In this document: one piece after another, positions 3,001 through 60,240 of the stretch
Numbering within the stretch: the first letter of the stretch is position 1
How the letters are laid out: each line of letters opens with the position of its first letter
NCBI GenBank assembly: GCA_976551045.1
Contig: CDPCPM010000041.1
Location: forward strand, 186,001 to 250,000
DNA from: Glaucostegus cemiculus
Taxonomy: Eukaryota
DNA: 64,000 nt
Reading direction: 5' to 3'
Made by a program: the position numbers and the translations under genes
Notes under the pieces: model-generated
Told to the model about the DNA's origin: nothing
Seen by the model: the letters and a program-made list of their open reading frames with translations, nothing else
Database searches by the model: none

Positions 3001-6000
3001 GCGCCGGTGACCCAGTCTCAAGCCTCTGCTGCCGTCTGTGTGGAGTTTGTACGTCATCTCCGTGACCGGCCGGTTTACCTCAGTGTGCACTGAATCCCCC
3101 CCATCCCCCACATCTCAACAACAGGTGTCTTTGGAGACTAATTGGCCACAGTCAATGGCCACTGGTGCGCAGATGAGTGGCAGCTTCTGGCATCATTTCA
3201 TATGGATGTGGGGCGAATAGAGAATTTGGTGTAAATGTCTGCCTGATGCTCGGTGCGCACACGATGGGCCGAAGGGACTGTTTCCGTGCTGTATCTTTTC
3301 AGTCGAATTCACCTGCACTCTCTTAATGCTTTCCTCTTCCCGTGCAGACGTCCACAGTTCCCTGACCTGCGACTGCCTTGACCCGGGAACGCAACGCATC
3401 AGCCCTTTCTTGTCTACCATCATTTTATTCTGCGGGACCTCTGCTAACTCACGGTCACACTCCCATATCCTGCTCCATCCTATATCCAGCCCACACGGAC
3501 GCAGTCTCTTGATCCCACCAGGGCGGCGGCGACCGCGAAGCACCTTTCTTCGACCAATCTGCACCTGTCTTCTGAGACCGTCCGCACTTTCCCTCCAGCT
3601 CCCACGGGTTCTACAATTCGCCCAAGCGATGCAGGCTCTGTTCCGATAGACCCGTACCGGTCTGGGCACTGGGAACCGACCAGGACACCAGCTTGATTGC
3701 AGGTAGCGCTTGCAAACTCTACACAGACGACGCCCTCTGTTTTAGGTTATAAATTATTCCCCTCCGTTATTTACTCCTTTCTCTGCTACTTCCGTCAGTT
3801 TACCTGTTAAACTTGTACCATCCATATTCCAGTTTGTCATCGCTCTTAGTTGGAGACGTGCATTCCCTTCTTTTTCAATTCGTGCTCCTCCAGGTTTGCT
3901 CCAGGACTGTGTGACTGACACACGGGTCAGAGCGAGCAGAGTCCGCAGCTGAAGAACAGAATCACGCTCAGTGTGAGCATCACACGCATTGCGTGGACGT
4001 CTGAACACCGAAGTGTCACTGAATCACAGAATGGGACGTCGCAGCCACGGGCCCTTTCGGACCACCTTGTCCGTGCCCACTGTGACGCCCATCAACTACA
4101 AAACTATTTGCTTGCATTCGCCGAATAACCTGCACACTATCCTAGTAACTGCAGAAATGTTGTTGTTCTCGCCTCCACCACTTCCACTGCCAGGGGAAAG
4201 GTAACACTTACAGCTGAGATTCTCCTTAACACTCTCCCCTCTCACCTTAAAACTCTGCCGTCTATCCCGGGAAAAGGACACTGTCCATCTGTCCAGTCTG
4301 TGTTCCTCATGAGGTTATAAATATCTTTCAGGTCGGCCTTCAACCTCCTTCCCATGGGAACAAGCTCACCTCGTCCATTCTCCAGTTGTTACCGCAGTTC
4401 CCAATTCCAGGCAACACCCTGGCGAGCATCTCCTGCTCTCTCTTTCTCTCGCTCTCGCTCTCTGTTTCTCTCTTTCGCTCTCTCACTAGTTCTTTCTGTG
4501 ATATCATTTCTTTTAGTAAGGGGACTAGAACTGCGCACGATATGAGGTCGAAACAATAGTTTGCAGAGTTATATCATGACGTCCCAATCACTACACTAAT
4601 TACCCTGACCAATGAAGGCAAACGTGTCAAACACATTCCGCGTTACCCCATCTATCGTCATCGCCACTTCCACTGCACGCCTCACGTGCATTCTCAGGTA
4701 CCGCAGGAAATCCGCTCTCTCTCAGTACCTGTTTCCAACCTGAGATTCCCCCTTTGACGTTCAATTACGTCACACAATTGAGAGCTGTAAAGCCTTGGAC
4801 CTGTCGTTACTCGCGCATGTCAGCCCAGATCTCCATTGGGAATACAAGGCTAGTTCCTGCGTATAGTTGGAGTTAGACACCTTCCCCAGAGAGCAAGGCA
4901 TATAGATATTTAGCTAGATCGAGAGATNNNNNNNNNNNNNNNNNNNNNNNNNNNNNNNNNNNNNNNNNNNNNNNNNNNNNNNNNNNNNNNNNNNNNNNNN
5001 NNNNNNNNNNNNNNNNNNNNNNNNNNNNNNNNNNNNNNNNNNNNNNNNNNNNNNNNNNNNNNNNNNNNNNNNNNNNNNNNNNNNNNNNNNNNNNNNNNNN
5101 NNNNNNNNNNNNNNNNNNNNNNNNNNNNNNNNNNNNNNNNNNNNNNNNNNNNNNNNNNNNNNNNNNNNNNNNNNNNNNNNNNNNNNNNNNNNNNNNNNNN
5201 NNNNNNNNNNNNNAGACATAGAACGATGGATATATGTGGAGATAGATAGGTAGATTCCTACATACATACATAATATCTAGACAGACAGGCATACATATAG
5301 AAAGATGGATAGAGATAGATAGATGGATAGATAGTTAGATAGAGAGAAAGAGATGGATAGATAGATAGATAAACAGATAGATAACAGACAGATAGGTAGA
5401 GAGAAAGACAGATAGAAAGAAACCGAAGGGCGCAGATCTACAGAGAGTTGGGGAGCTGGAAACAGAAGATACTCTCCGTGGCAAAGATAGTTTTTCACGT
5501 TCTGCTGCTACCGAAACTGCGCAAGGTAATCTAAATGCGAGGTGTCGGCTCTATTCTATAGTCTATAATATGGTAACTGAGTCCACCCCCCACCTCTTGG
5601 CATAGCAAGGGTCAGGAAGGCAGATAGACACAGGGTGGATTCTCAATCGTCATCTCTATATTTATAGTTACCAACCCTCATTTTCCTGATGCCCTGGGAT
5701 GTTTTACAGTGACCCTCCCTGTGCCGCCACACTGGGACCGGTGCAGCCGGGAAGTGTACCTGTGCAATAAGCGGAGTTTCCGGGTGTTGTCTTCAGCTCG
5801 TAGACAACGTAATCGGTGCAGTTTTTAATCCTGATCTGCCGAGTCACTTCGCACGCGCCGTTCCCTCCGCTGAAACAAACTGTGCTGTTCACCACACCCT
5901 GCGCCACGGTGGGATGGCGACCTGTAAATATCGCAGAGTGTAACTCACGTCAGAACTGCGCAATGGGAATATGAATGTTCGGGATGTTGTAAATTCTGAC

Positions 6001-35000: not shown

Positions 35001-38000
35001 TGAGGGCGGACACGAAGCACCTTTCCTCGCTCATCCTACACTCATTCGGCGAGACTTCCCCCACCTTCCATCCAACTTCCAAGGGTTCTACCATTCAAGA
35101 TAGTGATGCAGCCGCTAATTGTATCGGCCCGGATTCGTCTGGACACAAGAGAGCTGGCCTGGACACCAGCTTGATCACAGGGAGAGCTAGCAAACTCCAC
35201 ACAGACAGCGGTCGAGGTCACCCCGGAGCCTCGGTCACTGGAGCTGCGACGCAGCAGTTCCATGAGCCGAGACAGCGTGCCTTCTATTGATCTCTTCCAT
35301 CACTCTATATTCTGCTATGAAACACGAAACGCAGATTATCTGCATGTAGAGACTGGCTGAACCCGTTTACCTGTTCCAACCCATGTACCGTGGCACTGAA
35401 CTACGATTGGGGAAGCCCTGTATATTCAGTTGTAACTGCTCCCCTCCGTTATTTACTCCTTTCTTTGCTACTTCAGTCACTTTACCTTTTAAACCTGTAC
35501 CATCCATATTCAAGTTTGTCATCACTCCTAGTTGGATCCGTGCATTCCTTTCCTTTGCAATCCGAGCTCCTCCAGGGCTCGTCCAGGACTGTGTGACTGA
35601 CACACGGGTCAGAGCGAGCGGAGTCCGCAGCTGAACAACAGAATCACGCGGAGTGTGAGTCTCACCGGCAGTCGACGTGTTGCGTGGACGACTGAACACC
35701 GAAGTTGCACCGAATCACGTAATCGGACGGCGGAGCGATGGGCCCTTTCGGCCCATCTCGTCCGTGATATCCGTGATATGCATTAACTCGAATCCCATTT
35801 GACTGCATTCGCCTCGTAACCCTCTGCTCCTATCCAAGTACCAACACAAAGATTGTTACTGTTCTGGCCTCCACCACTTCCCCTGGCAGGTGAGAGGTCA
35901 GCACCGCCCTCTGTGTGAGAACTTACTCCTCAGAGTCTCTTCACTCTCCCCCCTCGCTCCTCTGTTACGGGATAAGGACAATGTCCACGATCGCCACTTC
36001 CAGTGCGCGGCTCACGCGTGTTCTCAGGACCCACGAGATATCCCCTTTCTCTCTCCCCCCCCCCCGCTCAGTCTCTGTATCCAACCTGAGCTTCCATCTT
36101 TGACGTTCAATGACGTCACGCAAATGAGAGCTGTGAAGTCTTGGACCTGTCGTGTGTCAGGCCAGCTTTCCCTTGGGAATATAAGGTGGAATTCTCGAAC
36201 CGGAAGTCTTGGAGGTAGACATCTTCCCCTGAGAGCAAGGTATATATTGTAGATACATAGATAAATATGTAGGCAGACAGATGGATACATAGATATGTAG
36301 CCAGAAATATAGACAGAGAGAGAGAGAGAGAGATAGCTGAATAGACAGATAGACAGATAAGTAGACCGACAGTGACAGATGGAGAGACAGACAGGTAGAC
36401 AGACAGACTGAAGGGCGCAGAGTCGGACTTGCAGACCGACAGAGAGTTGGAGCGTTGGAAACAGAAAAATGCACTCCGAAGCACAGATTGTCTTTCACGT
36501 TCTGCTGTTACCGAAACTGCGCATATTTACAAGGCAATTCAATGACGAAGTGGCGGCTTCCTTCTATTGTCTATGAAATGTCAGGTGAGTCCAGCCCCCA
36601 CCACTGGGCATGGTTGGGGTGAGGAAAGCAGATAGACACTGGGTGGGTCCTCATTCGTCATCTACAGCTTTATAGTTCCAGAACCTCCTTCCCCTGAAGC
36701 CCTGGATCTCTTTCTCTGACCCTCCTTGTGCCACCACACTGGGACCGGTGCAGCCGGGAAGTGTACCTGTGCAATAAGCAGAGTCTTTGTCTGTTTTCTT
36801 CAGCTGATAGACGACGTAATCGGTGCAGTTTTTAATCTTGATCTCCTTCGTCCATTCACAGGCGCTGTTCTCTTTGCTGAAACAAACTGTGCGGTTTACC
36901 ACTCCCTGCCCCACGGCGGGATGGGGACCTGTAAATATTGCCGAGCGTAACTCACATGAGTACTGCGGAATAGGAATATGAATGTTCGGGATGTTGTAAA
37001 TTCTCACCCTACCTTGTATCCAGCCGGGATGTTCCGTGGAGCAGTGATCCTCTGAGATACGAGTCTCGGGAATCTTCCATCCTCCGGAACTGCAAGAACA
37101 ACCACAGCGTCTGCATCCGATCTCCTCGCTTCATCATCTGTGAGAATGGCTGGTGTCCGGAGAGCGAGACTGCACACTCGGAACTAACTTCTGACCCCTC
37201 CCCTCCCTGCTCGAATTCAACACACAGATCTCTTCCGGAAATCATCCTGCACGCAACGTCCCGATTGCTGCCCCCACATATATCCCCGGGTCCTCTCCTA
37301 ACTTCTCTACCTGATGGACATCCGTCACCGTCAGGGCGGGAGGCACCCTGGCGTAGCTGGGAGGGCCGCTGCCTCACAGCGCCGGTGACCTGGTCTCAAG
37401 CATCCACTGTCCTCTGTGTGGAGTTTGCACGTCATCTCCGCGACCACGCTGATTTCCTCCGAGTGCCCGCATTCCCACCACATCCCAACACCGTGTGGCT
37501 TCGAAGATTAACTGGCCACTGTCAGTGGCCGCTGGTGCTCAGGTGAGAGGCAGCTTCTGACATCGTTTCATGTCAATTTGGGACGAATAGAGAATTTGGT
37601 GTAAATGTAGGTTTACCTGGAGGGCCGAAGGGCCTGTTTCCTTGCTGTATCTTTCCAGTCGAATTCACCTGATCTCTTAATGTTCTAGCTGCATTACCTC
37701 TCCCAATGCTGATATCCTCAGGGCCCTGATCTCCGACGGCCTTGAGCCTTGAGCCCTTCCTTGTTTACCCTTCTGCGTAAGTCCCGCTAACTCGGTTATC
37801 CCTGTCCCATCTCCCACTCCATCCTATATCTATCCCACACGAACACACAAGGGCGGCGGCGACCTTTTCCCGCTCATCCTGTACTCATTCGGTGAGACTG
37901 TCCCCACTTCCCATCCGATTCCTACTGGTTCTGCCATTCACGCTAGCGACACAGCCTCTGATCATATCGGCCCGGACCCGCGTGGACACAAGAGAACCGG

Positions 38001-41000
38001 CCAGGACGCCAGCTTGATCACAGGGAGAGCTTGTAAACTCCACGCAGACAGCGGTGGAGGTCAGCCCGGAGACGCGGTCACTGGGGCTGCGAAGCAGCGG
38101 TTCCATGAGCCGAGACAAATGCGCCTCTCACCTTCTATTGCTCTCCTCCATAGCTCTATATTCTGCTCCGAACCACGAAACGCAGATTATCTGCACGTAG
38201 AGGCTTGGATGAACCCGTTTACCTCTGTCAGACAAATGTACTGTGCACTGAAGGAAGATTGGGGGCGCCCTGTATTTGCTGTTGTAACTGTTCCCCTCCT
38301 TTATCTATCTATTTGTTAGTCTGTCCTATATTGATCCACCTATCTATCTATCAATCCATTTATTTTCTAACAATCTATTTAACGATCTAGCTCTTTTCTA
38401 TCCATCTCTCTATCCATCTATCTGTCTCTGACTGTGGATATATCTACTTATATATCTGTGTATCCATCTGTCTGTCTATGTCTATCTATGTTTACTGCTT
38501 TCTCTGCCATTTGCATATTCCGTTATAACCGTTCCTCTCTGTTATTTACAGCACCTTTTCCACTTCCTTCACTTTACCTTTTAAACCTGTACCATCCATA
38601 TTCAAGTTTGTCATCACTCTTAGTTGGATCCGTGCATTCCTTTCTTTGGCAATCCGAGCTCCTCCAGGGCTCGTCCAGGACTGTGTGACTGACACACGGG
38701 TCAGAGCGAGCGGAGTCCGCAGCTGAACAACAGAATCACGCGGAGTGTGAGTATCACCGGCAGTCGACGTGTTGCGTGGACGACTGAACACCGAAGTTGC
38801 ACCGAATCACGTAATCGGACGGCGGAGCGATGGGCCCTTTCGGCCCATCTCGTCCGTGATATCCGTGATATGCATTAACTCGAATCCCATTTGACTGCAT
38901 TCGCCTCGTAACCCTCTGCTCCTATCCAAGTACCAACACAAAGATTGTTACTGTTCTGGCCTCCACCACTTCCCCTGGCAGGTGAGAGGTCAGCACCGCC
39001 CTCTGTGTAAGAACTTACTCCTCAGAGTCTCTTCACTCTCCCCCCTCGCTCCTCTGTTACGGGATAAGGACAATGTCCACGATCGCCACTTCCAGTGCGC
39101 GGCTCACGCGTGTTCTCAGGACCCTCGAGATATCCCCTTTCTCTCTCCCCCCCGCTCAGTCCCTGTATCCATCCTGAGCTTCCATCTTTGACGTTCAATG
39201 ACGTCACGCAAATGAGAGCTGTGAAGTCTTGGACCTGTCGTGTGTCAGGCCAGCTCTCCCTTGGGAATATAAGGTGGAATTCTCGAACCGGAAGTCTTGG
39301 AGGTAGACATCTTCCCCTGAGAGCAAGGTATATATTGTAGATACATAGATCAATATGTAGGCAGACAGATGGATACATAGAAATGTAGCCAGAAATATAG
39401 ACAGAGAGAGAGAGAGATAGCTGAATAGACAGATAGACAGATAAGTAGACAGACAGTGACAGATGGAGAGACAGACAGGTAGACAGACAGACTGAAGGGC
39501 GCAGAGTCGGACTTGCAGACCGACAGAGAGTTGGAGCGTTGGAAACAGAAAAATGCACTCCGAAGCACAGATTGTCTTTCACGTTCTGCTGTTACCGAAA
39601 CTGCGCATATTTACAAGGCAATTCAATGACGAAGTGGCGGCTTCCTTCTATTGTCTATGAAATGTCAGGTGAGTCCAGCCCCCACCACTGGGCATGGTTG
39701 GGGTGAGGAAAGCAGATAGACACTGGGTGGGTCCTCATTCGTCATCTACAGCTTTATAGTTCCAGAACCTCCTTCCCCTGAAGCCCTGGATCTCTTTCTC
39801 TGACCCTCCTTGTGCCACCACACTGGGACCGGTGCAGCCGGGAAGTGTACCTGTGCAATAAGCAGAGTCTTTGTCTGTTTTCTTCAGCTGATAGACGACG
39901 TAATCGGTGCAGTTTTTAATCTTGATCTCCTTCGTCCATTCACAGGCGCTGTTCTCTTTGCTGAAACAAACTGTGCGGTTTACCACTCCCTGCCCCACGG
40001 CGGGATGGGGACCTGTAAATATTGCCGAGCGTAACTCACATGAGTACTGCGGAATAGGAATATGAATGTTCGGGATGTTGTAAATTCTCACCCTACCTTG
40101 TATCCAGCCGGGATGTTCCGTGGAGCAGTGATCCTCTGAGATACGAGTCTCGGGAATCTTCCATCCTCCGGAACTGCAAGAACAACCACAGCGTCTGCAT
40201 CCGATCTCCTCGCTTCATCATCTGTGAGAATGGCTGGTGTCCGGAGAGCGAGACTGCACACTCGGAACTAACTTCTGACCCCTCCCCTCCCTGCTCGAAT
40301 TCAACACACAGATCTCTTCCGGAAATCATCCTGCACGCAACGTCCCGATTGCTGCCCCCACATATATCCCCGGGTCCTCTCCTAACTTCTCTACCTGATG
40401 GACATCCGTCACCGTCAGGGCGGGAGGCACCCTGGCGTAGCTGGGAGGGCCGCTGCCTCACAGCGCCGGTGACCTGGTCTCAAGCATCCACTGTCCTCTG
40501 TGTGGAGTTTGCACGTCATCTCCGCGACCACGCTGATTTCCTCCGAGTGCCCGCATTCCCACCACATCCCAACACCGTGTGGCTTCGAAGATTAACTGGC
40601 CACTGTCAGTGGCCGCTGGTGCTCAGGTGAGAGGCAGCTTCTGACATCGTTTCATGTCAATTTGGGACGAATAGAGAATTTGGTGTAAATGTAGGTTTAC
40701 CTGGAGGGCCGAAGGGCCTGTTTCCTTGCTGTATCTTTCCAGTCGAATTCACCTGATCTCTTAATGTTCTAGCTGCATTACCTCTCCCAATGCTGATATC
40801 CTCAGGGCCCTGATCTCCGACGGCCTTGAGCCTTGAGCCCTTCCTTGTTTACCCTTCTGCGTAAGTCCCGCTAACTCGGTTATCCCTGTCCCATCTCCCA
40901 CTCCATCCTATATCTATCCCACACGAACACACAAGGGCGGCGGCGACCTTTTCCCGCTCATCCTGTACTCATTCGGTGAGACTGTCCCCACTTCCCATCC

Positions 41001-44000
41001 GATTCCTACTGGTTCTGCCATTCACGCTAGCGACACAGCCTCTGATCATATCGGCCCGGACCCGCGTGGACACAAGAGAACCGGCCAGGACGCCAGCTTG
41101 ATCACAGGGAGAGCTTGTAAACTCCACGCAGACAGCGGTGGAGGTCAGCCCGGAGACGCGGTCACTGGGGCTGCGAAGCAGCGGTTCCATGAGCCGAGAC
41201 AAATGCGCCTCTCACCTTCTATTGCTCTCCTCCATAGCTCTATATTCTGCTCCGAACCACGAAACGCAGATTATCTGCACGTAGAGGCTTGGATGAACCC
41301 GTTTACCTCTGTCAGACAAATGTACTGTGCACTGAAGGAAGATTGGGGGCGCCCTGTATTTGCTGTTGTAACTGTTCCCCTCCTTTATCTATCTATTTGT
41401 TAGTCTGTCCTATATTGATCCACCTATCTATCTATCAATCCATTTATTTTCTAACAATCTATTTAACGATCTAGCTCTTTTCTATCCATCTCTCTATCCA
41501 TCTATCTGTCTCTGACTGTGGATATATCTACTTATATATCTGTGTATCCATCTGTCTGTCTATGTCTATCTATGTTTACTGCTTTCTCTGCCATTTGCAT
41601 ATTCCGTTATAACCGTTCCTCTCTGTTATTTACAGCACCTTTTCCACTTCCTTCACTTTACCTTTTAAACCTGTACCATCCATATTCAAGTTTGTCATCA
41701 CTCTTAGTTGGATCCGTGCATTCCTTTCTTTGGCAATCCGAGCTCCTCCAGGGCTCGTCCAGGACTGTGTGACTGACACACGGGTCAGAGCGAGCGGAGT
41801 CCGCAGCTGAACAACAGAATCACGCGGAGTGTGAGTATCACCGGCAGTCGACGTGTTGCGTGGACGACTGAACACCGAAGTTGCACCGAATCACGTAATC
41901 GGACGGCGGAGCGATGGGCCCTTTCGGCCCATCTCGTCCGTGATATCCGTGATATGCATTAACTCGAATCCCATTTGACTGCATTCGCCTCGTAACCCTC
42001 TGCTCCTATCCAAGTACCAACACAAAGATTGTTACTGTTCTGGCCTCCACCACTTCCCCTGGCAGGTGAGAGGTCAGCACCGCCCTCTGTGTAAGAACTT
42101 ACTCCTCAGAGTCTCTTCACTCTCCCCCCTCGCTCCTCTGTTACGGGATAAGGACAATGTCCACGATCGCCACTTCCAGTGCGCGGCTCACGCGTGTTCT
42201 CAGGACCCTCGAGATATCCCCTTTCTCTCTCCCCCCCGCTCAGTCCCTGTATCCATCCTGAGCTTCCATCTTTGACGTTCAATGACGTCACGCAAATGAG
42301 AGCTGTGAAGTCTTGGACCTGTCGTGTGTCAGGCCAGCTCTCCCTTGGGAATATAAGGTGGAATTCTCGAACCGGAAGTCTTGGAGGTAGACATCTTCCC
42401 CTGAGAGCAAGGTATATATTGTAGATACATAGATCAATATGTAGGCAGACAGATGGATACATAGAAATGTAGCCAGAAATATAGACAGAGAGAGAGAGAG
42501 ATAGCTGAATAGACAGATAGACAGATAAGTAGACAGACAGTGACAGATGGAGAGACAGACAGGTAGACAGACAGACTGAAGGGCGCAGAGTCGGACTTGC
42601 AGACCGACAGAGAGTTGGAGCGTTGGAAACAGAAAAATGCACTCCGAAGCACAGATTGTCTTTCACGTTCTGCTGTTACCGAAACTGCGCATATTTACAA
42701 GGCAATTCAATGACGAAGTGGCGGCTTCCTTCTATTGTCTATGAAATGTCAGGTGAGTCCAGCCCCCACCACTGGGCATGGTTGGGGTGAGGAAAGCAGA
42801 TAGACACTGGGTGGGTCCTCATTCGTCATCTACAGCTTTATAGTTCCAGAACCTCCTTCCCCTGAAGCCCTGGATCTCTTTCTCTGACCCTCCTTGTGCC
42901 ACCACACTGGGACCGGTGCAGCCGGGAAGTGTACCTGTGCAATAAGCAGAGTCTTTGTCTGTTTTCTTCAGCTGATAGACGACGTAATCGGTGCAGTTTT
43001 TAATCTTGATCTCCTTCGTCCATTCACAGGCGCTGTTCTCTTTGCTGAAACAAACTGTGCGGTTTACCACTCCCTGCCCCACGGCGGGATGGGGACCTGT
43101 AAATATTGCCGAGCGTAACTCACATGAGTACTGCGGAATAGGAATATGAATGTTCGGGATGTTGTAAATTCTCACCCTACCTTGTATCCAGCCGGGATGT
43201 TCCGTGGAGCAGTGATCCTCTGAGATACGAGTCTCGGGAATCTTCCATCCTCCGGAACTGCAAGAACAACCACAGCGTCTGCATCCGATCTCCTCGCTTC
43301 ATCATCTGTGAGAATGGCTGGTGTCCGGAGAGCGAGACTGCACACTCGGAACTAACTTCTGACCCCTCCCCTCCCTGCTCGAATTCAACACACAGATCTC
43401 TTCCGGAAATCATCCTGCACGCAACGTCCCGATTGCTGCCCCCACATATATCCCCGGGTCCTCTCCTAACTTCTCTACCTGATGGACATCCGTCACCGTC
43501 AGGGCGGGAGGCACCCTGGCGTAGCTTGGAGGGCCGCTGCCTCACAGCGCCGGTGACCTGGTCTCAAGCATCCACTGTCCTCTGTGTGGAGTTTGCACGT
43601 CATCTCCGCGACCACGCTGATTTCCTCCGAGTGCCCGCATTCCCACCACATCCCAACACCGTGTGGCTTCGAAGATTAACTGGCCACTGTCAGTGGCCGC
43701 TGGTGCTCAGGTGAGAGGCAGCTTCTGACATCGTTTCATGTCAATTTGGGACGAATAGAGAATTTGGTGTAAATGTAGGTTTACCTGGAGGGCCGAAGGG
43801 CCTGTTTCCTTGCTGTATCTTTCCAGTCGAATTCACCTGATCTCTTAATGTTCTAGCTGCATTACCTCTCCCAATGCTGATATCCTCAGGGCCCTGATCT
43901 CCGACGGCCTTGAGCCTTGAGCCCTTCCTTGTTTACCCTTCTGCGTAAGTCCCGCTAACTCGGTTATCCCTGTCCCATCTCCCACTCCATCCTATATCTA

Positions 44001-47000
44001 TCCCACACGAACACACAAGGGCGGCGGCGACCTTTTCCCGCTCATCCTGTACTCATTCGGTGAGACTGTCCCCACTTCCCATCCGATTCCTACTGGTTCT
44101 GCCATTCACGCTAGCGACACAGCCTCTGATCATATCGGCCCGGACCCGCGTGGACACAAGAGAACCGGCCAGGACGCCAGCTTGATCACAGGGAGAGCTT
44201 GTAAACTCCACGCAGACAGCGGTGGAGGTCAGCCCGGAGACGCGGTCACTGGGGCTGCGAAGCAGCGGTTCCATGAGCCGAGACAAATGCGCCTCTCACC
44301 TTCTATTGCTCTCCTCCATAGCTCTATATTCTGCTCCGAACCACGAAACGCAGATTATCTGCACGTAGAGGCTTGGATGAACCCGTTTACCTCTGTCAGA
44401 CAAATGTACTGTGCACTGAAGGAAGATTGGGGGCGCCCTGTATTTGCTGTTGTAACTGTTCCCCTCCTTTATCTATCTATTTGTTAGTCTGTCCTATATT
44501 GATCCACCTATCTATCTATCAATCCATTTATTTTCTAACAATCTATTTAACGATCTAGCTCTTTTCTATCCATCTCTCTATCCATCTATCTGTCTCTGAC
44601 TGTGGATATATCTACTTATATATCTGTGTATCCATCTGTCTGTCTATGTCTATCTATGTTTACTGCTTTCTCTGCCATTTGCATATTCCGTTATAACCGT
44701 TCCTCTCTGTTATTTACAGCACCTTTTCCACTTCCTTCACTTTACCTTTTAAACCTGTACCATCCATATTCAAGTTTGTCATCACTCTTAGTTGGATCCG
44801 TGCATTCCTTTCTTTGGCAATCCGAGCTCCTCCAGGGCTCGTCCAGGACTGTGTGACTGACACACGGGTCAGAGCGAGCGGAGTCCGCAGCTGAACAACA
44901 GAATCACGCGGAGTGTGAGTATCACCGGCAGTCGACGTGTTGCGTGGACGACTGAACACCGAAGTTGCACCGAATCACGTAATCGGACGGCGGAGCGATG
45001 GGCCCTTTCGGCCCATCTCGTCCGTGATATCCGTGATATGCATTAACTCGAATCCCATTTGACTGCATTCGCCTCGTAACCCTCTGCTCCTATCCAAGTA
45101 CCAACACAAAGATTGTTACTGTTCTGGCCTCCACCACTTCCCCTGGCAGGTGAGAGGTCAGCACCGCCCTCTGTGTAAGAACTTACTCCTCAGAGTCTCT
45201 TCACTCTCCCCCCTCGCTCCTCTGTTACGGGATAAGGACAATGTCCACGATCGCCACTTCCAGTGCGCGGCTCACGCGTGTTCTCAGGACCCTCGAGATA
45301 TCCCCTTTCTCTCTCCCCCCCGCTCAGTCCCTGTATCCATCCTGAGCTTCCATCTTTGACGTTCAATGACGTCACGCAAATGAGAGCTGTGAAGTCTTGG
45401 ACCTGTCGTGTGTCAGGCCAGCTCTCCCTTGGGAATATAAGGTGGAATTCTCGAACCGGAAGTCTTGGAGGTAGACATCTTCCCCTGAGAGCAAGGTATA
45501 TATTGTAGATACATAGATCAATATGTAGGCAGACAGATGGATACATAGAAATGTAGCCAGAAATATAGACAGAGAAAGAGAGAGATAGCTGAATAGACAG
45601 ATAGACAGATAAGTAGACAGACAGTGACAGATGGAGAGACAGACAGGTAGACAGACAGACTGAAGGGCGCAGAGTCGGACTTGCAGACCGACAGAGAGTT
45701 GGAGCGTTGGAAACAGAAAAATGCACTCCGAAGCACAGATTGTCTTTCACGTTCTGCTGTTACCGAAACTGCGCATATTTACAAGGCAATTCAATGACGA
45801 AGTGGCGGCTTCCTTCTATTGTCTATGAAATGTCAGGTGAGTCCAGCCCCCACCACTGGGCATGGTTGGGGTGAGGAAAGCAGATAGACACTGGGTGGGT
45901 CCTCATTCGTCATCTACAGCTTTATAGTTCCAGAACCTCCTTCCCCTGAAGCCCTGGATCTCTTTCTCTGACCCTCCTTGTGCCACCACACTGGGACCGG
46001 TGCAGCCGGGAAGTGTACCTGTGCAATAAGCAGAGTCTTTGTCTGTTTTCTTCAGCTGATAGACGACGTAATCGGTGCAGTTTTTAATCTTGATCTCCTT
46101 CGTCCATTCACAGGCGCTGTTCTCTTTGCTGAAACAAACTGTGCGGTTTACCACTCCCTGCCCCACGGCGGGATGGGGACCTGTAAATATTGCCGAGCGT
46201 AACTCACATGAGTACTGCGGAATAGGAATATGAATGTTCGGGATGTTGTAAATTCTCACCCTACCTTGTATCCAGCCGGGATGTTCCGTGGAGCAGTGAT
46301 CCTCTGAGATACGAGTCTCGGGAATCTTCCATCCTCCGGAACTGCAAGAACAACCACAGCGTCTGCATCCGATCTCCTCGCTTCATCATCTGTGAGAATG
46401 GCTGGTGTCCGGAGAGCGAGACTGCACACTCGGAACTAACTTCTGACCCCTCCCCTCCCTGCTCGAATTCAACACACAGATCTCTTCCGGAAATCATCCT
46501 GCACGCAACGTCCCGATTGCTGCCCCCACATATATCCCCGGGTCCTCTCCTAACTTCTCTACCTGATGGACATCCGTCACCGTCAGGGCGGGAGGCACCC
46601 TGGCGTAGCTGGGAGGGCCGCTGCCTCACAGCGCCGGTGACCTGGTCTCAAGCATCCACTGTCCTCTGTGTGGAGTTTGCACGTCATCTCCGCGACCACG
46701 CTGATTTCCTCCGAGTGCCCGCATTCCCACCACATCCCAACACCGTGTGGCTTCGAAGATTAACTGGCCACTGTCAGTGGCCGCTGGTGCTCAGGTGAGA
46801 GGCAGCTTCTGACATCGTTTCATGTCAATTTGGGACGAATAGAGAATTTGGTGTAAATGTAGGTTTACCTGGAGGGCCGAAGGGCCTGTTTCCTTGCTGT
46901 ATCTTTCCAGTCGAATTCACCTGATCTCTTAATGTTCTAGCTGCATTACCTCTCCCAATGCTGATATCCTCAGGGCCCTGATCTCCGACGGCCTTGAGCC

Positions 47001-50000
47001 TTGAGCCCTTCCTTGTTTACCCTTCTGCGTAAGTCCCGCTAACTCGGTTATCCCTGTCCCATCTCCCACTCCATCCTATATCTATCCCACACGAACACAC
47101 AAGGGCGGCGGCGACCTTTTCCCGCTCATCCTGTACTCATTCGGTGAGACTGTCCCCACTTCCCATCCGATTCCTACTGGTTCTGCCATTCACGCTAGCG
47201 ACACAGCCTCTGATCATATCGGCCCGGACCCGCGTGGACACAAGAGAACCGGCCAGGACGCCAGCTTGATCACAGGGAGAGCTTGTAAACTCCACGCAGA
47301 CAGCGGTGGAGGTCAGCCCGGAGACGCGGTCACTGGGGCTGCGAAGCAGCGGTTCCATGAGCCGAGACAAATGCGCCTCTCACCTTCTATTGCTCTCCTC
47401 CATAGCTCTATATTCTGCTCCGAACCACGAAACGCAGATTATCTGCACGTAGAGGCTTGGATGAACCCGTTTACCTCTGTCAGACAAATGTACTGTGCAC
47501 TGAAGGAAGATTGGGGGCGCCCTGTATTTGCTGTTGTAACTGTTCCCCTCCTTTATCTATCTATTTGTTAGTCTGTCCTATATTGATCCACCTATCTATC
47601 TATCAATCCATTTATTTTCTAACAATCTATTTAACGATCTAGCTCTTTTCTATCCATCTCTCTATCCATCTATCTGTCTCTGACTGTGGATATATCTACT
47701 TATATATCTGTGTATCCATCTGTCTGTCTATGTCTATCTATGTTTACTGCTTTCTCTGCCATTTGCATATTCCGTTATAACCGTTCCTCTCTGTTATTTA
47801 CAGCACCTTTTCCACTTCCTTCACTTTACCTTTTAAACCTGTACCATCCATATTCAAGTTTGTCATCACTCTTAGTTGGATCCGTGCATTCCTTTCTTTG
47901 GCAATCCGAGCTCCTCCAGGGCTCGTCCAGGACTGTGTGACTGACACACGGGTCAGAGCGAGCGGAGTCCGCAGCTGAACAACAGAATCACGCGGAGTGT
48001 GAGTATCACCGGCAGTCGACGTGTTGCGTGGACGACTGAACACCGAAGTTGCACCGAATCACGTAATCGGACGGCGGAGCGATGGGCCCTTTCGGCCCAT
48101 CTCGTCCGTGATATCCGTGATATGCATTAACTCGAATCCCATTTGACTGCATTCGCCTCGTAACCCTCTGCTCCTATCCAAGTACCAACACAAAGATTGT
48201 TACTGTTCTGGCCTCCACCACTTCCCCTGGCAGGTGAGAGGTCAGCACCGCCCTCTGTGTAAGAACTTACTCCTCAGAGTCTCTTCACTCTCCCCCCTCG
48301 CTCCTCTGTTACGGGATAAGGACAATGTCCACGATCGCCACTTCCAGTGCGCGGCTCACGCGTGTTCTCAGGACCCTCGAGATATCCCCTTTCTCTCTCC
48401 CCCCCGCTCAGTCCCTGTATCCATCCTGAGCTTCCATCTTTGACGTTCAATGACGTCACGCAAATGAGAGCTGTGAAGTCTTGGACCTGTCGTGTGTCAG
48501 GCCAGCTCTCCCTTGGGAATATAAGGTGGAATTCTCGAACCGGAAGTCTTGGAGGTAGACATCTTCCCCTGAGAGCAAGGTATATATTGTAGATACATAG
48601 ATCAATATGTAGGCAGACAGATGGATACATAGAAATGTAGCCAGAAATATAGACAGAGAAAGAGAGAGATAGCTGAATAGACAGATAGACAGATAAGTAG
48701 ACAGACAGTGACAGATGGAGAGACAGACAGGTAGACAGACAGACTGAAGGGCGCAGAGTCGGACTTGCAGACCGACAGAGAGTTGGAGCGTTGGAAACAG
48801 AAAAATGCACTCCGAAGCACAGATTGTCTTTCACGTTCTGCTGTTACCGAAACTGCGCATATTTACAAGGCAATTCAATGACGAAGTGGCGGCTTCCTTC
48901 TATTGTCTATGAAATGTCAGGTGAGTCCAGCCCCCACCACTGGGCATGGTTGGGGTGAGGAAAGCAGATAGACACTGGGTGGGTCCTCATTCGTCATCTA
49001 CAGCTTTATAGTTCCAGAACCTCCTTCCCCTGAAGCCCTGGATCTCTTTCTCTGACCCTCCTTGTGCCACCACACTGGGACCGGTGCAGCCGGGAAGTGT
49101 ACCTGTGCAATAAGCAGAGTCTTTGTCTGTTTTCTTCAGCTGATAGACGACGTAATCGGTGCAGTTTTTAATCTTGATCTCCTTCGTCCATTCACAGGCG
49201 CTGTTCTCTTTGCTGAAACAAACTGTGCGGTTTACCACTCCCTGCCCCACGGCGGGATGGGGACCTGTAAATATTGCCGAGCGTAACTCACATGAGTACT
49301 GCGGAATAGGAATATGAATGTTCGGGATGTTGTAAATTCTCACCCTACCTTGTATCCAGTCGGGATGTTCCGTGGAGCAGTGATCCTCTGAGATACGAGT
49401 CTCGGGAATCTTCCATCCTCCGGAACTGCAAGAACAACCACAGCGTCTGCATCCGATCTCCTCGCTTCATCAGCTGTGAGAATGGCTGGTGTCCGGAGAG
49501 CGAGACTGCACACTCGGAACTAACTTCTGACCCCTCCCCTCCCTGCTCGAATTCAACACACAGATCTCTTCCGGAAATCATCCTGCACGCAACGTCCCGA
49601 TTGCTGCCCCCACATATATCCCCGGGTCCTCTCCTAACTTCTCTACCTGATGGACATCCGTCACCGTCAGGGCGGGAGGCACCCTGGCGTAGCTGGGAGG
49701 GCCGCTGCCTCACAGCGCCGGTGACCTGGTCTCAAGCATCCACTGTCCTCTGTGTGGAGTTTGCACGTCATCTCCGCGACCACGCTGATTTCCTCCGAGT
49801 GCCCGCATTCCCACCACATCCCAACACCGTGTGGCTTCGAAGATTAACTGGCCACTGTCAGTGGCCGCTGGTGCTCAGGTGAGAGGCAGCTTCTGACATC
49901 GTTTCATGTCAATTTGGGACGAATAGAGAATTTGGTGTAAATGTAGGTTTACCTGGAGGGCCGAAGGGCCTGTTTCCTTGCTGTATCTTTCCAGTCGAAT

Positions 50001-52916
50001 TCACCTGATCTCTTAATGTTCTAGCTGCATTACCTCTCCCAATGCTGATATCCTCAGGGCCCTGATCTCCGACGGCCTTGAGCCGAGGACGCAACGCAAC
50101 AGCCCTTCCTTGTTTACCCTTCTGCGTAAGTCCCGCTAACTCGGTTATCCCTGTCCCATCTCCCACTCCATCCTATATCTATCCCACACGAACACACAAG
50201 GGCGGCGGCGACCTTTTCCCGCTCATCCTGTACTCATTCGGTGAGACTGTCCCCACTTCCCATCCGATTCCTACTGGTTCTGCCATTCACGCTAGCGACA
50301 CAGCCTCTGATCATATCGGCCCGGACCCGCGTGGACACAAGAGAACCGGCCAGGACGCCAGCTTGATCACAGGGAGAGCTTGTAAACTCCACGCAGACAG
50401 CGGTGGAGGTCAGCCCGGAGACGCGGTCACTGGGGCTGCGAAGCAGCGGTTCCATGAGCCGAGACAAATGCGCCTCTCACCTTCTATTGCTCTCCTCCAT
50501 AGCTCTATATTCTGCTCCGAACCACGAAACGCAGATTATCTGCACGTAGAGGCTTGGATGAACCCGTTTACCTCTGTCAGACAAATGTACTGTGCACTGA
50601 AGGAAGATTGGGGGCGCCCTGTATTTGCTGTTGTAACTGTTCCCCTCCTTTATCTATCTATTTGTTAGTCTGTCCTATATTGATCCACCTATCTATCTAT
50701 CAATCCATTTATTTTCTGACAATCTATTTAACGATCTAGCTCTTTTCTATCCATCTCTCTATCCATCTATCTGTCTCTGACTGTGGATATATCTACTTAT
50801 ATATCTGTGTATCCATCTGTCTGTCTATGTCTATCTATGTTTACTGCTTTCTCTGCCATTTGCATATTCCGTTATAACCGTTCCTCTCTGTTATTTACAG
50901 CACCTTTTCCACTTCCTTCACTTTACCTTTTAAACCTGTACCATCCATATTCAAGTTCGTTATCACTCTTAGTTGGGTCACTGCAATCCTTTTCTTTGCA
51001 ATACGTGCTCCTCCAGGGCTCGTCCAGGACTGTATGTTTGACACACGGGTCAGAGGGAGTGGAGTCCGCAGCTGAACAACAGAATCACGCTCAGTGTGAG
51101 TATCACCCACAGTCCACGCATTGCAGGGACGTCTGAACACAGAAGTGTCACTGAATCACAGAATGGGATGGCGGAGCGACGGGCCCTTTCGGTCAATTTT
51201 GTCCGTGCCCACCGTGATACCCATCAATGTCATTTGCCTGCATTCGTCCCGTAAACATCTGCTCCTGTCCAAGTGCCTGCACAAAGTTTGTTTTTGTTCT
51301 CGCCTCCACCGCTTCCTCTGGGGGTGGGGGGTGGGGGTGAGAACACTAACACCTTCGATTCTCTTTATCTCTCTCCCTTCTACCTTTAGGGGCGGCACGG
51401 TAGCGTAGCGGATAGAGCGACGCTGTTACAGCGCCAGCGATCGGGGTTCGTTTCCCGTCGTTGACTGTCAGGAGTTTGTACGTTCTCCCGTGTTTGCGTG
51501 GGTTTCCTCCGGGTGCTCCGGTTTCCTCCCACATTCTGAAAGACGTACGGGTAGGTTAATTTGGGGGTTTAAAATGGACGGCGCGGACTCGTTGGGCCGA
51601 AAGAGCCTGTTACCACGCTGTAAATAAAATTAAAAAAAAGATAAATTTAAAGAAACTTCTGCCTTCTATCCTGGGTAAAGGATCTTGTCCATCTCTCCTA
51701 CCTGTGTCGCTCATGAGTTTATAAGTATCTTCCAGGTCCGCCTTCAGCCTCATTCCTGTGAGAACAAGCCCACCTCATCCATTCTCCCTTTTTAACCACT
51801 GAAACCGAGTTCCAGGCAACACCCTGGCGAGCATCTTCTGCCGTCACTCTCACTATGTCTTACTGCGATATCATTACTGTTATAGGGCGACAAGAACTGC
51901 GCACAAAATGCTGTCCAAACAATGTTTTGCAGAGGTACCACACGGCATCCCAATTCCTACACCAAACACCTTCTACATTACCGCATCTACCTGCCTCGCC
52001 ACTTTCACTGCACGGCTCACGTGTATTCTCAGGTCCCTCAGGAAATCTTCTCCCTCTCGGTCTCTGTTCCCAGCCTGAGATTCCCTCTTTGACGTTAAAT
52101 TACGTCACACAATTGAGAGCTGTGAAGCCTTGGATCTGTCGTCACTCGCGCACGTCAGCCCAGATCTCTCCTGGGAACAACAGGTGGAATCTCGAACCGC
52201 AAGTGACTGGCTTGGTCCTCCATATTCTTAGAGATTGAATTTATCCCCAGAAAGGTACATGGATAGATAGTGNNNNNNNNNNNNNNNNNNNNNNNNNNNN
52301 NNNNNNNNNNNNNNNNNNNNNNNNNNNNNNNNNNNNNNNNNNNNNNNNNNNNNNNNNNNNNNNNNNNNNNNNNNNNNNNNNNNNNNNNNNNNNNNNNNNN
52401 NNNNNNNNNNNNNNNNNNNNNNNNNNNNNNNNNNNNNNNNNNNNNNNNNNNNNNNNNNNNNNNNNNNNNNNNNNNNNNNNNNNNNNNNNNNNNNNNNNNN
52501 NNAAATATAGAAGATGGACAGACAGATTGGTAGATAGATAGATACATAGGAAGATAGAGGAGAGATAATAGGTTGGAGAAACAGATTTATAGAGGGACAG
52601 ATAGATAGGTAGATGGAGAGATAAACATTGTAAATAGATAGCTAGATAGCCTGATAGCTAGCCAGCTAGCTAGCTGGATAGATAGATAGATAGACAAACA
52701 GACAAATGCATAGATGGAAACATAGGTAGACATAGACAGACAGATGGATACACCGATACATAGGTAGATATCTCGACAGTCAGAGATAGATAGATAGAGG
52801 GATAGAGAGATGGATAGCAAAGATCTAGATCGTTAGATAGATTGTTAGAAAATAGATGAATTGATAGATAAATAGGTGGATTAATATAGGCAGAGATGGA
52901 CAGACTAACAAATAGT

Positions 52917-52974: not shown

Positions 52975-54034
52975 TAGAGAGACAGATAGATAGACAGGTA
53001 GATAGGTAGACAGAGATGTATAGATGGACGGATAGAATGGCAGATAGATAGAAAGACAGATAGGTAGACGGAAAGAAATAAAAGAAAGAAAGAAAGTAAA
53101 AACAAAGAAAGACGGTGAGTGGACAAACGTGAGGGTGGGTAAGGAAATGGATGGATGGATCAGGTGCTCCCGGTGCGAGATATGACTTATCTCCGTAAAC
53201 CTGCTCATGGATTAGCGCACATCGAATATCTGGGTCATAAATGCTGCTCTATTGACAGGTGCTGCCGGACTCTTGCATTTCCGGTGCAGACGCACGGGGA
53301 GGCCGAACTGCTGGAACAGACACGGATATTTTACATTTCCCGGAAGAGCCAGAAATCTGCAATCTCTTTACCTTTTTCCGAATGAGACGCATTTTCGATG
53401 GGCGATTTGGACATGGGCGGAGAGCTGGGAGATGTCAAAACCGACAGCGGATCTGAGGGATGCAGAAAGGGAGAGTTTACTGAGATGCGACGCTGAAGGC
53501 TTAATGGAGTTTGAATAGTGAAAAGTGAGAGCGATTCGTTGCAACTGACTGCAGTGCCTTTCCTTGTTTCTTTGACACAGTAACTTAACGTGACCTACGA
53601 CTGGACAAAGCAGACGTCATTATCTACCTGGATTTCCTATCGCAATAGGTAAAAGGAGAGCTCGAAATGACCAAAATTGTCAACAGATAATCAGTGAAGA
53701 CATTAACCAGAGAATATTATTGAGACACGTAGTAGAATTGAGTGGGGACAGGTGTGACATACTATGCAACAGCGGGAGATCAAATGGCGTCTTCCCAAAG
53801 CTGAATTGGAAGAATTGGGGCGCTCTGTAATAGAGAACGGAGTCTGACGTGTTATTACAGAAGTGCAGTTCCACAGAGCTGCCTCATTCTCCTTGAGTCA
53901 GTCAAGGCATCTCCAAGTTGTCACCCGAATTTCTCACTGTGAGAGATGTCAATCCGTGTAGATGTTTGAAGGAAAAATCCAATGTAGAGAAGACGCACAG
54001 CGGAAAGGTGGAGCGCAAGGAAACATGGAGGCAA

Positions 54035-54076
<42 letters not shown>

Positions 54077-55876: not shown

Positions 55877-55910
<34 letters not shown>

Positions 55911-58900
55911 GAGGGCGTGATTGATAGATAGGTAGAGAGGTATTGATTGATAGATAGGTAGATAGAGAGGTAGAGATCGATAGATAGTGATCGATAGATA
56001 GTGATCGATAGATAGATTGATCGATAGATAGATAGATATAGTGATGGATAGATAGAGATGGTGTGATACATAGACAGGTAGTGATAGATAGNNNNNNNNN
56101 NNNNNNNNNNNNNNNNNNNNNNNNNNNNNNNNNNNNNNNNNNNNNNNNNNNNNNNNNNNNNNNNNNNNNNNNNNNNNNNNNNNNNNNNNNNNNNNNNNNN
56201 NNNNNNNNNNNNNNNNNNNNNNNNNNNNNNNNNNNNNNNNNNNNNNNNNNNNNNNNNNNNNNNNNNNNNNNNNNNNNNNNNNNNNNNNNNNNNNNNNNNN
56301 NNNNNNNNNNNNNNNNNNNNNNNNNNNNNNNNNNNNNATTGATAGAGAGGTAGGGATAGTTAGATAGACAGATAGACAGAGACACAAAAGGGCGCACAGT
56401 CAGACTTGCAGGCCGGCAGAAAGCTAAAGAGTACGAAACAGAAAATGCACTTCTAGGCACAGATGCTGTTGACGAACCTGTGTATATTTGCAAGGCAATA
56501 CAGATGCGAACTGATGGCTTTCTTCCGTCGTTTCTCAAATGGCAGCTGAGGCCAGCCCACTCTTCTGGGCATGGCAATGGCGAGGACGGCTGATTTCCAC
56601 TGAGTAGGTTCTCAGTCGACATCTGTAGCTTTATAATTACAAACCTCCTCATTCCCTGATACCCTGAGATATCTTACAGTGAGGCAGAGACAATGACAAT
56701 TGGATGGGTAGATGGATAAACAGATAAAGAAAGACAGCGAGATAGATTCATAGATGAAGTCATATAAATAGATAGATAGAGAGAGAGATAGAGATATAGA
56801 TAGATAGAGAGAGAGAGACGGAAGGGCGCACATGGGACGTCGGCTGACAGAGAGTACAAGTCTTCGAAATAATATTGAATTTCACGTTCTGCTGTTATCG
56901 AAACTGCAGATATTTACAAGGCAATCGAAATGCGAAGTGACGGCTTTCTTTTATTGTCTGTAATATGGCAGGTGAGTCCAGCCCCCACTACTGGGCATGG
57001 TCGGGGTTAGGAAGGCAGATAGACACTGGGTGGGTCCTCATTCGAAATCTACAGCTTTGTAGTTATCGAACCCCTTTCCCTCATGCCCTGAGATGTCTTA
57101 CAGTGAACCTCTTTGTGCCACCACACTAGGACCGTTACAGCCGGGAAGTGTACCTGTGCAATAAGCGGAGTTTTGGTCTGTTTTCTTCAGCTCATAGACA
57201 ATGTAATCGGTGCAGTTTTTAATCCTGATCTCCCGAGTCTCCGTGGACTCCTCCTGAGTCACTTTGCATGCGCCGTTCCCTCCGCTGAAACAAACCGCGC
57301 TCTTCACCACTCCCTTCCCCACGGTGGGATGGGGACCTGTAAAAATTGCAGAGTGTAACTCACATCAGTACTGCGGAATGGGAATATGAATGTCGGGATG
57401 TTGGAAATTCTGACCCTACCTTGTATCCAGCCGGGATGTGTCGTGGAACAGTTATGCTCTGAGATACGAGTCTCGGGAATCTTCCATCCTCCGGAACTGC
57501 AAGAACAACCACAGCGTCTGCATCGGATCTCCTCGCTTCATCAGCTGTGAGAATGGCTGGTGTCCGGAGAGCGAGACTGCACACTCGGAACTAACTTCTG
57601 ACCCCTCCCCTCCCTGCTCGAATTCAACACACAGATCTCTTCCGGAAATCATCCTGCACGCAACGTCCCGATTGCTACCCCCACATATATCCCCGGGTCC
57701 TCTCCTAACTTCTCTACCTGATGGACATCCGTCACCGTCAGGGCGGGAGGCACCCTGGCGTAGCTGGGAGGGCCGCTGCCTCACAGCGCCGGTGACCTGG
57801 TCTCAAGCATCCGCTGTCCTCTGTGTGGAGTTTGCACGTCATCTCCGCGACCACACTGATTTCCTCCGAGTGCCCGCATTCCCACCACATCCCAACACCG
57901 TGTGGCTTCGAAGATTAACTGGCCACTGTCAGTGGCCGCTGGGGACTAACTTGTGACACCCTCCCTGCTCGATTCGATTCTACACACAGATCTATTCCTT
58001 TTGCTGCCCCCCCCCATGTATCCCCAGGTTCTGTCCAAACTTCTCTACCTGATGGACATTCGCTGCCATCACAGCGGGCGGCACCCTGGCGCAGCTGGGA
58101 GGGCCGCTGCCTGACACGTTTGGTGACCTGCTCTCAAACCCTCTGCTGCCGTCTGTGTGGAGTTTGCACGTCATCTCTGCGGACGCCTGGTTTCCCCTCA
58201 CCCCCCCGCACCCCAATGACTGTTGGCTTCGGAGATTAATTGGCCAATATCAATGGCCGCGGGCGCGAAGGTGAGTGGCAGCTTCTGGGATCGTTGAACG
58301 AAAATATGGATCGAATGGAGAATTTGGTGTAAATGTCTATGTGATGCTGGGTACGCACACGGTGGGCCGAAAGGACTGTTTCCGTTATCTGGCTTTCCAG
58401 CCAAATGTACCTACTCTCTCTTAATGTTCGGGCTGCATTACCTCTTCCCATGCTGACATCCTCAGTTCCCTGATCTCCGACTGCTCTGCCCGAAAACGCA
58501 ACGCATCAGCCCTTTCTTGTTTACCATCATTTTGTTCAGCGGAAGCTCTGCTAACTCGCGGTCCCTCTCCTATATCCCACACCATCCTATATTTATCCCA
58601 CACGGACACAATTACATGTTCCCACCAGATCGGACGCGACAACGAAGCACCTTTGTCCCCTCATTCTGCAACAGAATGAGACTGCTCCCACCTTCCATCC
58701 AACTCCCATGCGTTCTACCATTCACCCAAGCGATGCGGCCTCTGATCCGATCGACCCCGACTCTTCTGGACACAAGAAAACCGGCCTGGACTCCAAGCTT
58801 GATCACAGGGAGAGGTTGCAAACCCCACACAGACAGCGGCGGAGTTCATCCCGGAGACCCGGTCACTGGAGCTGCGAAGCAGCAGTTCCATGAGCCGAGA

Positions 58901-60240
58901 CAATGTGCTTCCCACCTTGTATTTCTCTCTCCCTTCATTCTATATTCTGCTCTGATCCAGGAACCGCGGTGTATCTTTATACAGATGTTGGCTGATCCCG
59001 TTTCCTCTGTCCGAGTCATGTACCGATGCACTAAGGATTGGGGACGCCCTGTGTTTTCCGTTACATGATTTCCCCTCCGTTATTTGCTCGTTTATTTGCT
59101 ACTTCTCCCACTTTACCTGTTAAACCTGTACCATCCATATTCAAGTTTGTCATCACTCTTAGTTTTATCCGTGCATTCCTTTCCTTTGCAATCCGCGCTC
59201 CTCCAGGTCTCGTCCAGGACTGTGTGACTGACACACGGGTCAGAGCGAGCGGAGTCCGCAGCTGAACAACAGAATCACACTCAGCGTGAGTATCACCCGC
59301 AGTCCACGCATTGCAGGGACGTCTGAACACAGAAGTGTCACTGAATCACAGAATGGGATGGCGGAGCGACGGGCCCTTTTGGTCCATCTCGTCCGTACCC
59401 ACCATCATGCCCATCGACTCTAAACCCGTTTGCCTGCATTCGCCCCGTAAACCGCTGTCCCATCGAATTACCTCCACCACTTCCTCCGGCAGAGAAAGGT
59501 AACCACCGCCCTCTGTGTGAGAACACTTACACCTCAGATTCTCTTTAACTCTCTCCCTTCTCACCTTAAAACTCTGCGGTCTATCCCCAGAAATAGGACG
59601 CTGACCATCTGTCCAGTCTGTGTCCCTCAGGAGGTTATAAACATCTTCTGGATTAGCCTTCAGCCTCCTTCCTTTTTCAAGCCCACCTCATTCATTCTCC
59701 TTCATGTTACCACAGACCCCCCATTCCAACACTCTGGCGGGCCTCCTCTCTCTCTCTCTCTCTCTTCCCACCCCTCTCTGACTATTTCTCACTGCGATAT
59801 ATTTCATGGCATCGGACGACTAGAACTGTGCAGAAAATGCAGCCGAAAATTGTTTTTCAGTGGTATAATATGACGTCTTAATCTCTACACAAATTACGCC
59901 GTCCAATGCAGGCAAACGTGTCAAACGCCTTCCGCATTACGCCATCTACCTGCTCCGCCCCTTCCAGGACGCGGCTCAGGAGCATTCTCAGGTCCCGCAC
60001 GAAAACCACTCCCCCTCTGTCCCTATCTTCAACCTAAGGTTCCCTCCTTGACGTTCAATTGCGTCGCACATTTGAGAGCTGTAAAGCCTTGGACCTGTCG
60101 TCAATCGCATATGTCAGGGCAGCTCTCTTTAGGGAAAAGACTGTGCAATTTTCCAACCGGAAGTCACCTGCTCGGAGGTCCGTATTCATGGAGCTAGAAA
60201 TCTTTCCCAGAGATAGATAGATAGATCGATCGATAGATAA

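Follow-up and report, generated by a model that had tools for sequence, protein, structure and literature searches.

A tandem array of D10C modules with paired cysteine loss in Glaucostegus cemiculus

Can a domain built on five disulfides give up two of them and stay folded and selected, or does such a loss mark decay? The question was raised by a 64,000-nucleotide stretch of Glaucostegus cemiculus DNA (contig C41, 186001-250000, of a 2.85-Gb genome; hereafter the window), which carries a tandem array of modules related to the D10C domain of human GP2 and uromodulin (UMOD). The cysteines of GP2 D10C pair as C1-C8, C2-C9, C3-C6, C4-C10 and C5-C7, as given in the available part of PMC8930769. 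An initial annotation of the window, which had named these same five pairings, described modules lacking C2 with C9 and C3 with one cysteine of the CC doublet and gaining two cysteines in a CxxxxC motif (here Ca and Cb), and argued for a folded, selected eight-cysteine variant. We consider it likely that these modules form a single gene belonging to an extensive shark-and-ray family, probably secreted, whose heads lack the C2-C9 and C3-C6 bonds, likely keep the GP2 fold and likely carry a new CxxxxC bond.

Cysteine register and paired loss

Modules were located by tblastn and splice-site inspection. The minus strand holds 14 three-exon D10C modules between 1573 and 62617, numbered M1 to M14 from 5' to 3' (Table 1). 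Exon A is 145 nucleotides (nt) long (142 in M1), exon B 77 nt and exon C 159-183 nt, with an intron of 83-84 nt between exons B and C. All donors and acceptors are GT/AG, the summed exon length is a multiple of three in all 14 modules, and the phases are 1-2-1-1, so that modules can be spliced in tandem. The reading is open in 13 of the 14, the exception being M14 (TGA). The limits first given for the array, 5760-59261, enclose exactly M2 to M13; M1 and M14 had been left outside.

The cysteine register was set by HMMER alignment of window modules to GP2 chain 7p6r_A. GP2 was the best PDB match for both module parts, and a window module scored 33.2 bits against PF23283 (D8C_UMOD, cut-off 27) with the intron still in frame. 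The serine of KSD aligned at C2 and no cysteine stood at C9; the arginine of ETR aligned at C3, in a weak-scoring first stretch, and an alanine at C6. The doublet cysteine that is kept is the second, C7, partner of C5, and the added exon A cysteines sit in a five-residue insertion relative to GP2. The paired absences and the addition were thereby borne out, with the retained cysteines at partner positions, and a full skate module aligned to 7p6r_A gave the same register. A typical module keeps six of the ten canonical cysteines and has two new ones, and so departs from the ten-cysteine, five-disulfide definition of D10C.

Exactly C1, Ca, Cb, C4, C5, C7, C8 and C10 are found in nine of the 14 modules (M2-M8, M10 and M12); M1, M9, M11 and M14 deviate, and M13 does so only by one added cysteine. 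M1 has C2 without C9 and C5 without C7. M4 to M7 encode identical proteins, which leaves 11 distinct modules in the window, seven with the eight-cysteine pattern; the repeat units of these four differ by 1-10 substitutions and may reflect either recent duplication or an assembly effect. Codons are mostly AGT at the C2 site and mostly CGT at the C3 site. As both are one base from TGT, C2 of M1 and C3 of M11 are probably regains.

Four cysteines lost from ten would make up two whole pairs by chance with a probability of 10/210 = 0.048. Covariation across the family is much stronger evidence for pairing. Cysteines were called with an alignment-anchored caller over 301 distinct modules. C2 and C9 were both present in 155, both absent from 125 and mixed in 21 (280 in agreement); for C3 and C6 the counts were 116, 161 and 24 (277 in agreement), and some of the mixed calls are alignment-window artefacts or modules that lost C5/C7 instead. 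Within 109 elasmobranch-type modules the non-partner controls were not associated (p = 1). A FastTree tree of 119 columns was built with the cysteines masked. On it C9 tracked C2 in 7.6 of 11 independent pairs and opposed it in none (median p 0.008), and C6 tracked C3 in 5.4 of 6 (p 0.06). For four non-partner controls p was 0.5-1.

A bond may also have been rebuilt. Each of the four elasmobranch-type modules with C3 has a second cysteine in a seven-residue insertion. Two modules, M2 and L030+770, bear the insertion but no C3, and neither has that second loop cysteine. Because the second cysteine goes with C3 and is absent without it, a re-formed C3 bond is suggested.

The added pair, fold and constraint

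Both Ca and Cb were present in 105 of 120 elasmobranch-type modules (18 genera, four-residue spacing fixed), neither in five and one alone in ten. They are regarded as additions because they co-occur with C2 and C9 in shark modules. A shifted C2 as the origin of Cb was rejected, since shark modules have Ca, Cb, C2 and C9 together and the Asp that follows C2 has not moved from the KSD/KCD site. The other six cysteines have GP2 partners, which leaves one free pair, four residues apart; by this elimination a Ca-Cb disulfide is likely. The bond appears peripheral and more dispensable. Over 67 modules (window and paralogs) Cb changed once (P = 0.005), and Ca five times against 7.5 expected (P = 0.24).

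For the fold, skate protein P0057 served as a stand-in, with the same eight cysteines, 58.6% identity to M4 and a 50-row alignment. Its module was predicted with a predicted local distance difference test score (pLDDT) of 92-98 per ten-residue block and a root-mean-square deviation (rmsd) of 1.1-1.7 Å from GP2; Foldseek gave E 7e-16 and rmsd 1.1 Å to 7p6s, and Z was 22.0. Structure prediction thus supports a GP2-like fold for an eight-cysteine skate homolog; for the Ca-Cb bond the argument stays the one by elimination.

A first alternative accepts the fold and the paired losses and takes Ca and Cb as surface thiols between modules or chains, or has Cb pair with varying neighbours near C4. Ca was lost three times in the window and Cb never, single Ca or Cb cysteines do occur, and an extra cysteine stands beside C4 in certain modules that have a cysteine at the C2 site or only one in the loop (the L023 module, P0141 and P0036), all of which would suit it. 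The joint presence and joint loss of the two cysteines at fixed spacing, an even total cysteine count in 46 of 51 genome paralogs, the lack of any other free partner in a typical module and a pLDDT of about 97 for the Ca-Cb loop of the P0057 model make it improbable.

Constraint was assessed by counting changes. The eight cysteines pooled changed five times in the window against 13.6 expected (P = 0.007), and 11 times against 60 expected over the 67 modules. The mean ratio of nonsynonymous to synonymous rates (dN/dS) among the 11 window modules was 0.79, with an invariant core and fast loops. Selection was examined with a purpose-built grid codon model over 65 modules, two stop-bearing modules being omitted. 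A class with dN/dS > 1 was favoured, with twice the log-likelihood difference (2dlnL) at 206 under one synonymous rate, 51 under varying rates and 14-19 per exon. The sites flagged lay mostly in the Ca-Cb loop with the C2 site and from the C3 site to just past C4; others lay in and after the C5-C7 loop and in the C9 loop. By these codon comparisons, positive selection appears to act on the loops where bonds were lost.

Several observations weigh against a folded, selected variant with a new bond. Single Ca or Cb cysteines occur in ten modules, and Ca is not significantly constrained. In M1 the cysteines that C2 and C5 bond to in GP2 are missing, the cysteine count is odd in M9 and M13, and M14 has a stop. 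The fold was predicted on the skate homolog and not on the window's own spliced module, from an alignment that held canonical family members and so favoured the family fold. The cysteine-masked tree has few columns and many unresolved forks. A dN/dS of 0.79 fits relaxed constraint too, the selection signal within the window is weak per exon (2dlnL 2-5, varying synonymous rate), and the grid model was not controlled for gene conversion, which can inflate it.

Some of these points are shared by a second alternative, in which the array is a recently amplified, relaxed or decaying birth-and-death copy that inherited its pattern and has fast loops that are merely unconstrained. The dN/dS value, the stop and C5 loss of M14, the odd counts of M9 and M13, intronic long interspersed nuclear element (LINE) insertions, the near-identity of M4-M7 and a stop in a neighbouring paralog speak for it. 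It is nevertheless quite unlikely, given 13 of 14 modules free of stops and frameshifts, canonical splice sites throughout, the deficit of cysteine changes in the window, and loops that vary while core residues are invariant. The folded, selected eight-cysteine variant of the initial annotation is supported by the cysteine counts, the open modules and the predicted fold of the homolog.

Gene, family and possible function

Homolog-guided searches placed a signal-peptide exon (phase 1) about 3 kb above M1, beyond the window. On the other side of the array, below M14, they gave seven phase 1-1 Ser/Thr-rich stalk exons, six of them outside the window, and, at a distance of about 11 kb from the window, an exon that matches homologs from sharks and rays in their C-terminal region. 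We infer that signal, module, stalk and C-terminal exons are joined in one transcript, and the gene would then probably encode a secreted protein of signal, modules and Ser/Thr stalk. The last exon was not located, and a hydrophobicity scan gave no transmembrane exon in 45 kb downstream. Flanking sequence of 100 kb on the downstream side and about 40 kb on the upstream side contained no further modules. Each module as a gene of its own was rejected, as the hydrophobic reading just ahead of exon A is in the wrong frame, runs into a stop and corresponds to the splice acceptor, and no second signal exon lies within the array.

Shark, skate and ray proteins labelled uromodulin-like, GP2-like, OIT3-like or uncharacterized in RefSeq and UniRef (for example XP_059815959.1 of Hypanus, XP_055514222.1 of Leucoraja and XP_067884563.1 of Heterodontus) belong to the same family as the window gene. 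They consist of a signal, one to seven modules, a stalk and a short C-terminal region, and the top matches share 53-61% identity with window modules; no homolog among the matches listed has as many modules as the window gene. Its signal exon, CxxxxC modules without C3, Ser/Thr stalk and short C-terminal region place it in this ZP-less elasmobranch D10C-stalk family. Word-based homolog searches returned five proteins with exon A, four of them named Xenopus, and no candidates with exon C; an ESM Atlas search with exon A gave no usable match.

Searching the genome with exon C gave 150 scored matches of 569 candidates, and at least 150 module copies are present. From 42 hand-picked, non-random 10-kb stretches 57 modules were spliced, of which three chimeric ones were dropped and 51 distinct ones kept; 42 of the 51 show the window's eight-cysteine pattern. 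The database set comprised 107 distinct modules from named proteins, 54 batoid (7 genera) and 53 shark (11 genera). Batoid modules had C2 in 0 of 54, and at C9 they had no cysteine in 45, a CC doublet in nine and a single cysteine never. Shark modules had C2 and C9 in 44 of 53, neither in five (all three from Heptranchias included) and one of them in four. Batoid homologs therefore have the same eight cysteines as the window, whereas most shark homologs keep C2-C9 and have ten, a simple marker that parts most shark from batoid members; by it the genome of the window is probably that of a batoid. C3 was missing from all 103 callable elasmobranch database modules, and CxxxxC was present in 92 of the 107. 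Eleven CxxxxC modules outside the motif-defined elasmobranch set all came from named sharks or rays, and the motif was found in 0 of the remaining 181 of the 301 modules. No chimaera proteins were among the named database matches, which has no firm bearing on absence.

The survey suggested by the initial annotation shows the eight-cysteine pattern to be the family norm of skates and rays, among genome paralogs and database modules alike. Cysteines have indeed been lost in pairs, and these are pairs bonded in the GP2 crystal structure; the variant appears to have arisen in two steps across the family, and not in this array. The likely history is that CxxxxC was gained and C3-C6 lost in elasmobranchs, and that C2-C9 was then lost in batoids and some sharks, an order taken from taxonomic distribution, the tree being unrooted.

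Losing disulfide cysteines in pairs is ordinary. This limits the surprise, and a precedent is given by nematode ZP modules, for which the available part of PMC7456536 describes convergent disulfide loss and reshuffling; they belong to a related extracellular class, but are ZP domains and not D10C. Tandem D10C proteins of Pecten, Magallana, Ptychodera, Acropora, Pocillopora, Xenopus and Paramisgurnus have lost C2/C9, C3/C6 or C5/C7 in pairs, and none has the CxxxxC loop. Domains of scallop, oyster, acorn worm, coral and frog also lack C2/C9 or C3/C6 as pairs, so that within the sample the CxxxxC gain alone sets elasmobranchs apart, and paired cysteine loss is, on the sequences compared, a recurrent feature of D10C.

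Human GP2 and UMOD (7p6r/s/t; PF23283; available part of PMC8930769) resemble the window modules in the domain matched by HMMER, in the predicted fold of the homolog and in C1, C4, C5, C7, C8 and C10, which are in register. Unlike them, the window modules lack C2/C9 and C3/C6, have the CxxxxC insertion and stand as tandem heads on a Ser/Thr stalk. The disulfide-bonded beta-hairpin that precedes D10C in GP2 and UMOD is absent, the modules starting seven residues before C1 with no cysteine there. GP2 and UMOD have ZP and EGF domains; two Xenopus uromodulin-like queries with EGF and ZP matched only D10C exons over 264 kb (tblastn), and no ZP or EGF family was found in any of seven homologs scanned. 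FimH recognises a high-mannose glycan at N65 of GP2 or N275 of UMOD; a sequon equivalent to GP2 N65 occurs in M1 and M10 only (2 of 14) and in 52 of 107 elasmobranch modules.

In the proposed protein, three ancestral disulfides (C1-C8, C4-C10 and C5-C7) would hold the D10C core, and the new CxxxxC bond would close a short inserted loop. The secreted chain would display about 13 heads ahead of the Ser/Thr-rich stalk, as a multivalent binder, and the four segments formerly tied by C2-C9 and C3-C6 would be free loops that change fast between copies. That these loops form a variable surface binding foreign ligands, microbial or otherwise, has a likelihood we place a little short of even; the link to microbes is drawn by analogy with GP2 and UMOD. 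With the hairpin absent and the N65-type sequon rare, these heads are not expected to act as FimH-type glycan decoys. Should the freed loops prove to bind ligands, cartilaginous fish would have in this family a candidate for a diversified recognition system of mucosa or plasma. A wider proposal, tentative and on balance doubtful, is that D10C became a variable recognition scaffold: two loop-tying disulfides removed, a new loop stapled, and hundreds of germline-encoded, positively selected heads set multivalently on secreted stalks as an undescribed innate repertoire, in which the loss and rebuilding of bonds would be continuing (C3 recovered together with another partner, a vicinal CC at the C9 site).

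The D10C domain and, as automatic annotation, the family were already known; new here are the test of pairing, the division between sharks and batoids and the apparent regains. In literature from which subscription journals are mostly absent, no title or abstract opening was found that deals with this family or its cysteine pattern. UMOD C195F/Y, at the C2-equivalent cysteine, is listed as disease-associated in the available part of PMC8930769, and a vertebrate lineage builds D10C without C2-C9 and C3-C6 despite this. Variants of this kind, made by nature, reveal the bonds that the fold can do without, and allow a direct test of what compensates.

Features of the locus and minor observations

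Table 1. Modules and other features of the window (positions in the window, strand in brackets).
Feature	Position	Description
M1	60870..62617 (-)	D10C module; exons 62617-62476, 61191-61115, 61031-60870; 8 Cys, C2 present, C7 and C9 absent
M2	57154..59261 (-)	Typical 8 Cys; 7-residue exon C insertion, Ser where M11 has second Cys
Exon candidate	53372..53452 (-)	Ser/Thr/Pro-rich, 81 nt, phase 1-1, in M2/M3 interval; possible linker; tblastn with Pristis homolog, AG/GT sites
M3	49103..51071 (-)	Typical 8 Cys
M4-M7	36767..47974 (-)	Four identical 8-Cys modules, 3084-bp units
M4 Cys codon starts	47948, 47903, 47888, 46295, 46136, 46112, 46079, 46025 (-)	C1, Ca, Cb, C4, C5, C7, C8, C10, respectively
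M8	32849..35630 (-)	Typical 8 Cys
M9	29403..31148 (-)	7 Cys; Ca to Tyr, leaving Cb partnerless
LINE	25324..28422 (+)	Intronic insertion; 869-residue open frame, endonuclease and reverse transcriptase domains
M10	19593..21304 (-)	Typical 8 Cys; sequon at GP2 N65-equivalent site
M11	14576..16208 (-)	10 Cys; C3 present, with a second Cys in an exon C insertion of 7 residues; no Ca; additional Cys two residues ahead of the exon A Trp
LINE	12655..13839 (-)	Intronic insertion; 395-residue fragment
M12	9989..12153 (-)	Typical 8 Cys
M13	5760..8167 (-)	Typical 8 Cys and a ninth, its codon at 8045
M14	1573..3948 (-)	Decayed; TGA at Ca codon 3877-3875; C5 to Tyr; one-codon deletion
First Ser/Thr stalk exon	1..66 (-)	Start of a 96-nt exon, remainder below window

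M14 could be skipped in splicing because its length is a multiple of three and its ends are phase 1-1. An N-C-T sequon that includes C8 is present in all 14 window modules and in 74 of 107 elasmobranch modules, and is absent from the aligned GP2 stretch.

Among the genome paralogs, the neighbouring single-module copies L005:44-1645 (-) and L019:857-3303 (+) lack Ca, Cb, C2, C3, C6 and C9; the L019 module has six cysteines only, a minimal core, and the L005 module carries a stop. A vicinal CC at the C9 site without C2, possibly a vicinal disulfide, was seen in L046:8187-8351, L057:3118-3255 and nine batoid database modules. The module at L023:7226-9728 has ten cysteines, with one at the C2 site and an extra one next to C4. 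The latter is a possible substitute partner for C2, as C2 and C4 share one figure panel in the GP2 paper (available part of PMC8930769).

Exon C matches with identical scores and a spacing of about 19.6 kb recurred on contigs C1, C121, C130, C175, C252, C314, C316, C405 and C1021, which suggests either a segmental duplication with scattered copies or redundancy in the assembly. At about 155800-156330 (-) of contig C41, some 30 kb below the window, lies a lone immunoglobulin-type V segment with a leader exon, an open frame and a heptamer/23-nt spacer/nonamer-like signal; it may put the D10C cluster beside an antigen-receptor locus.

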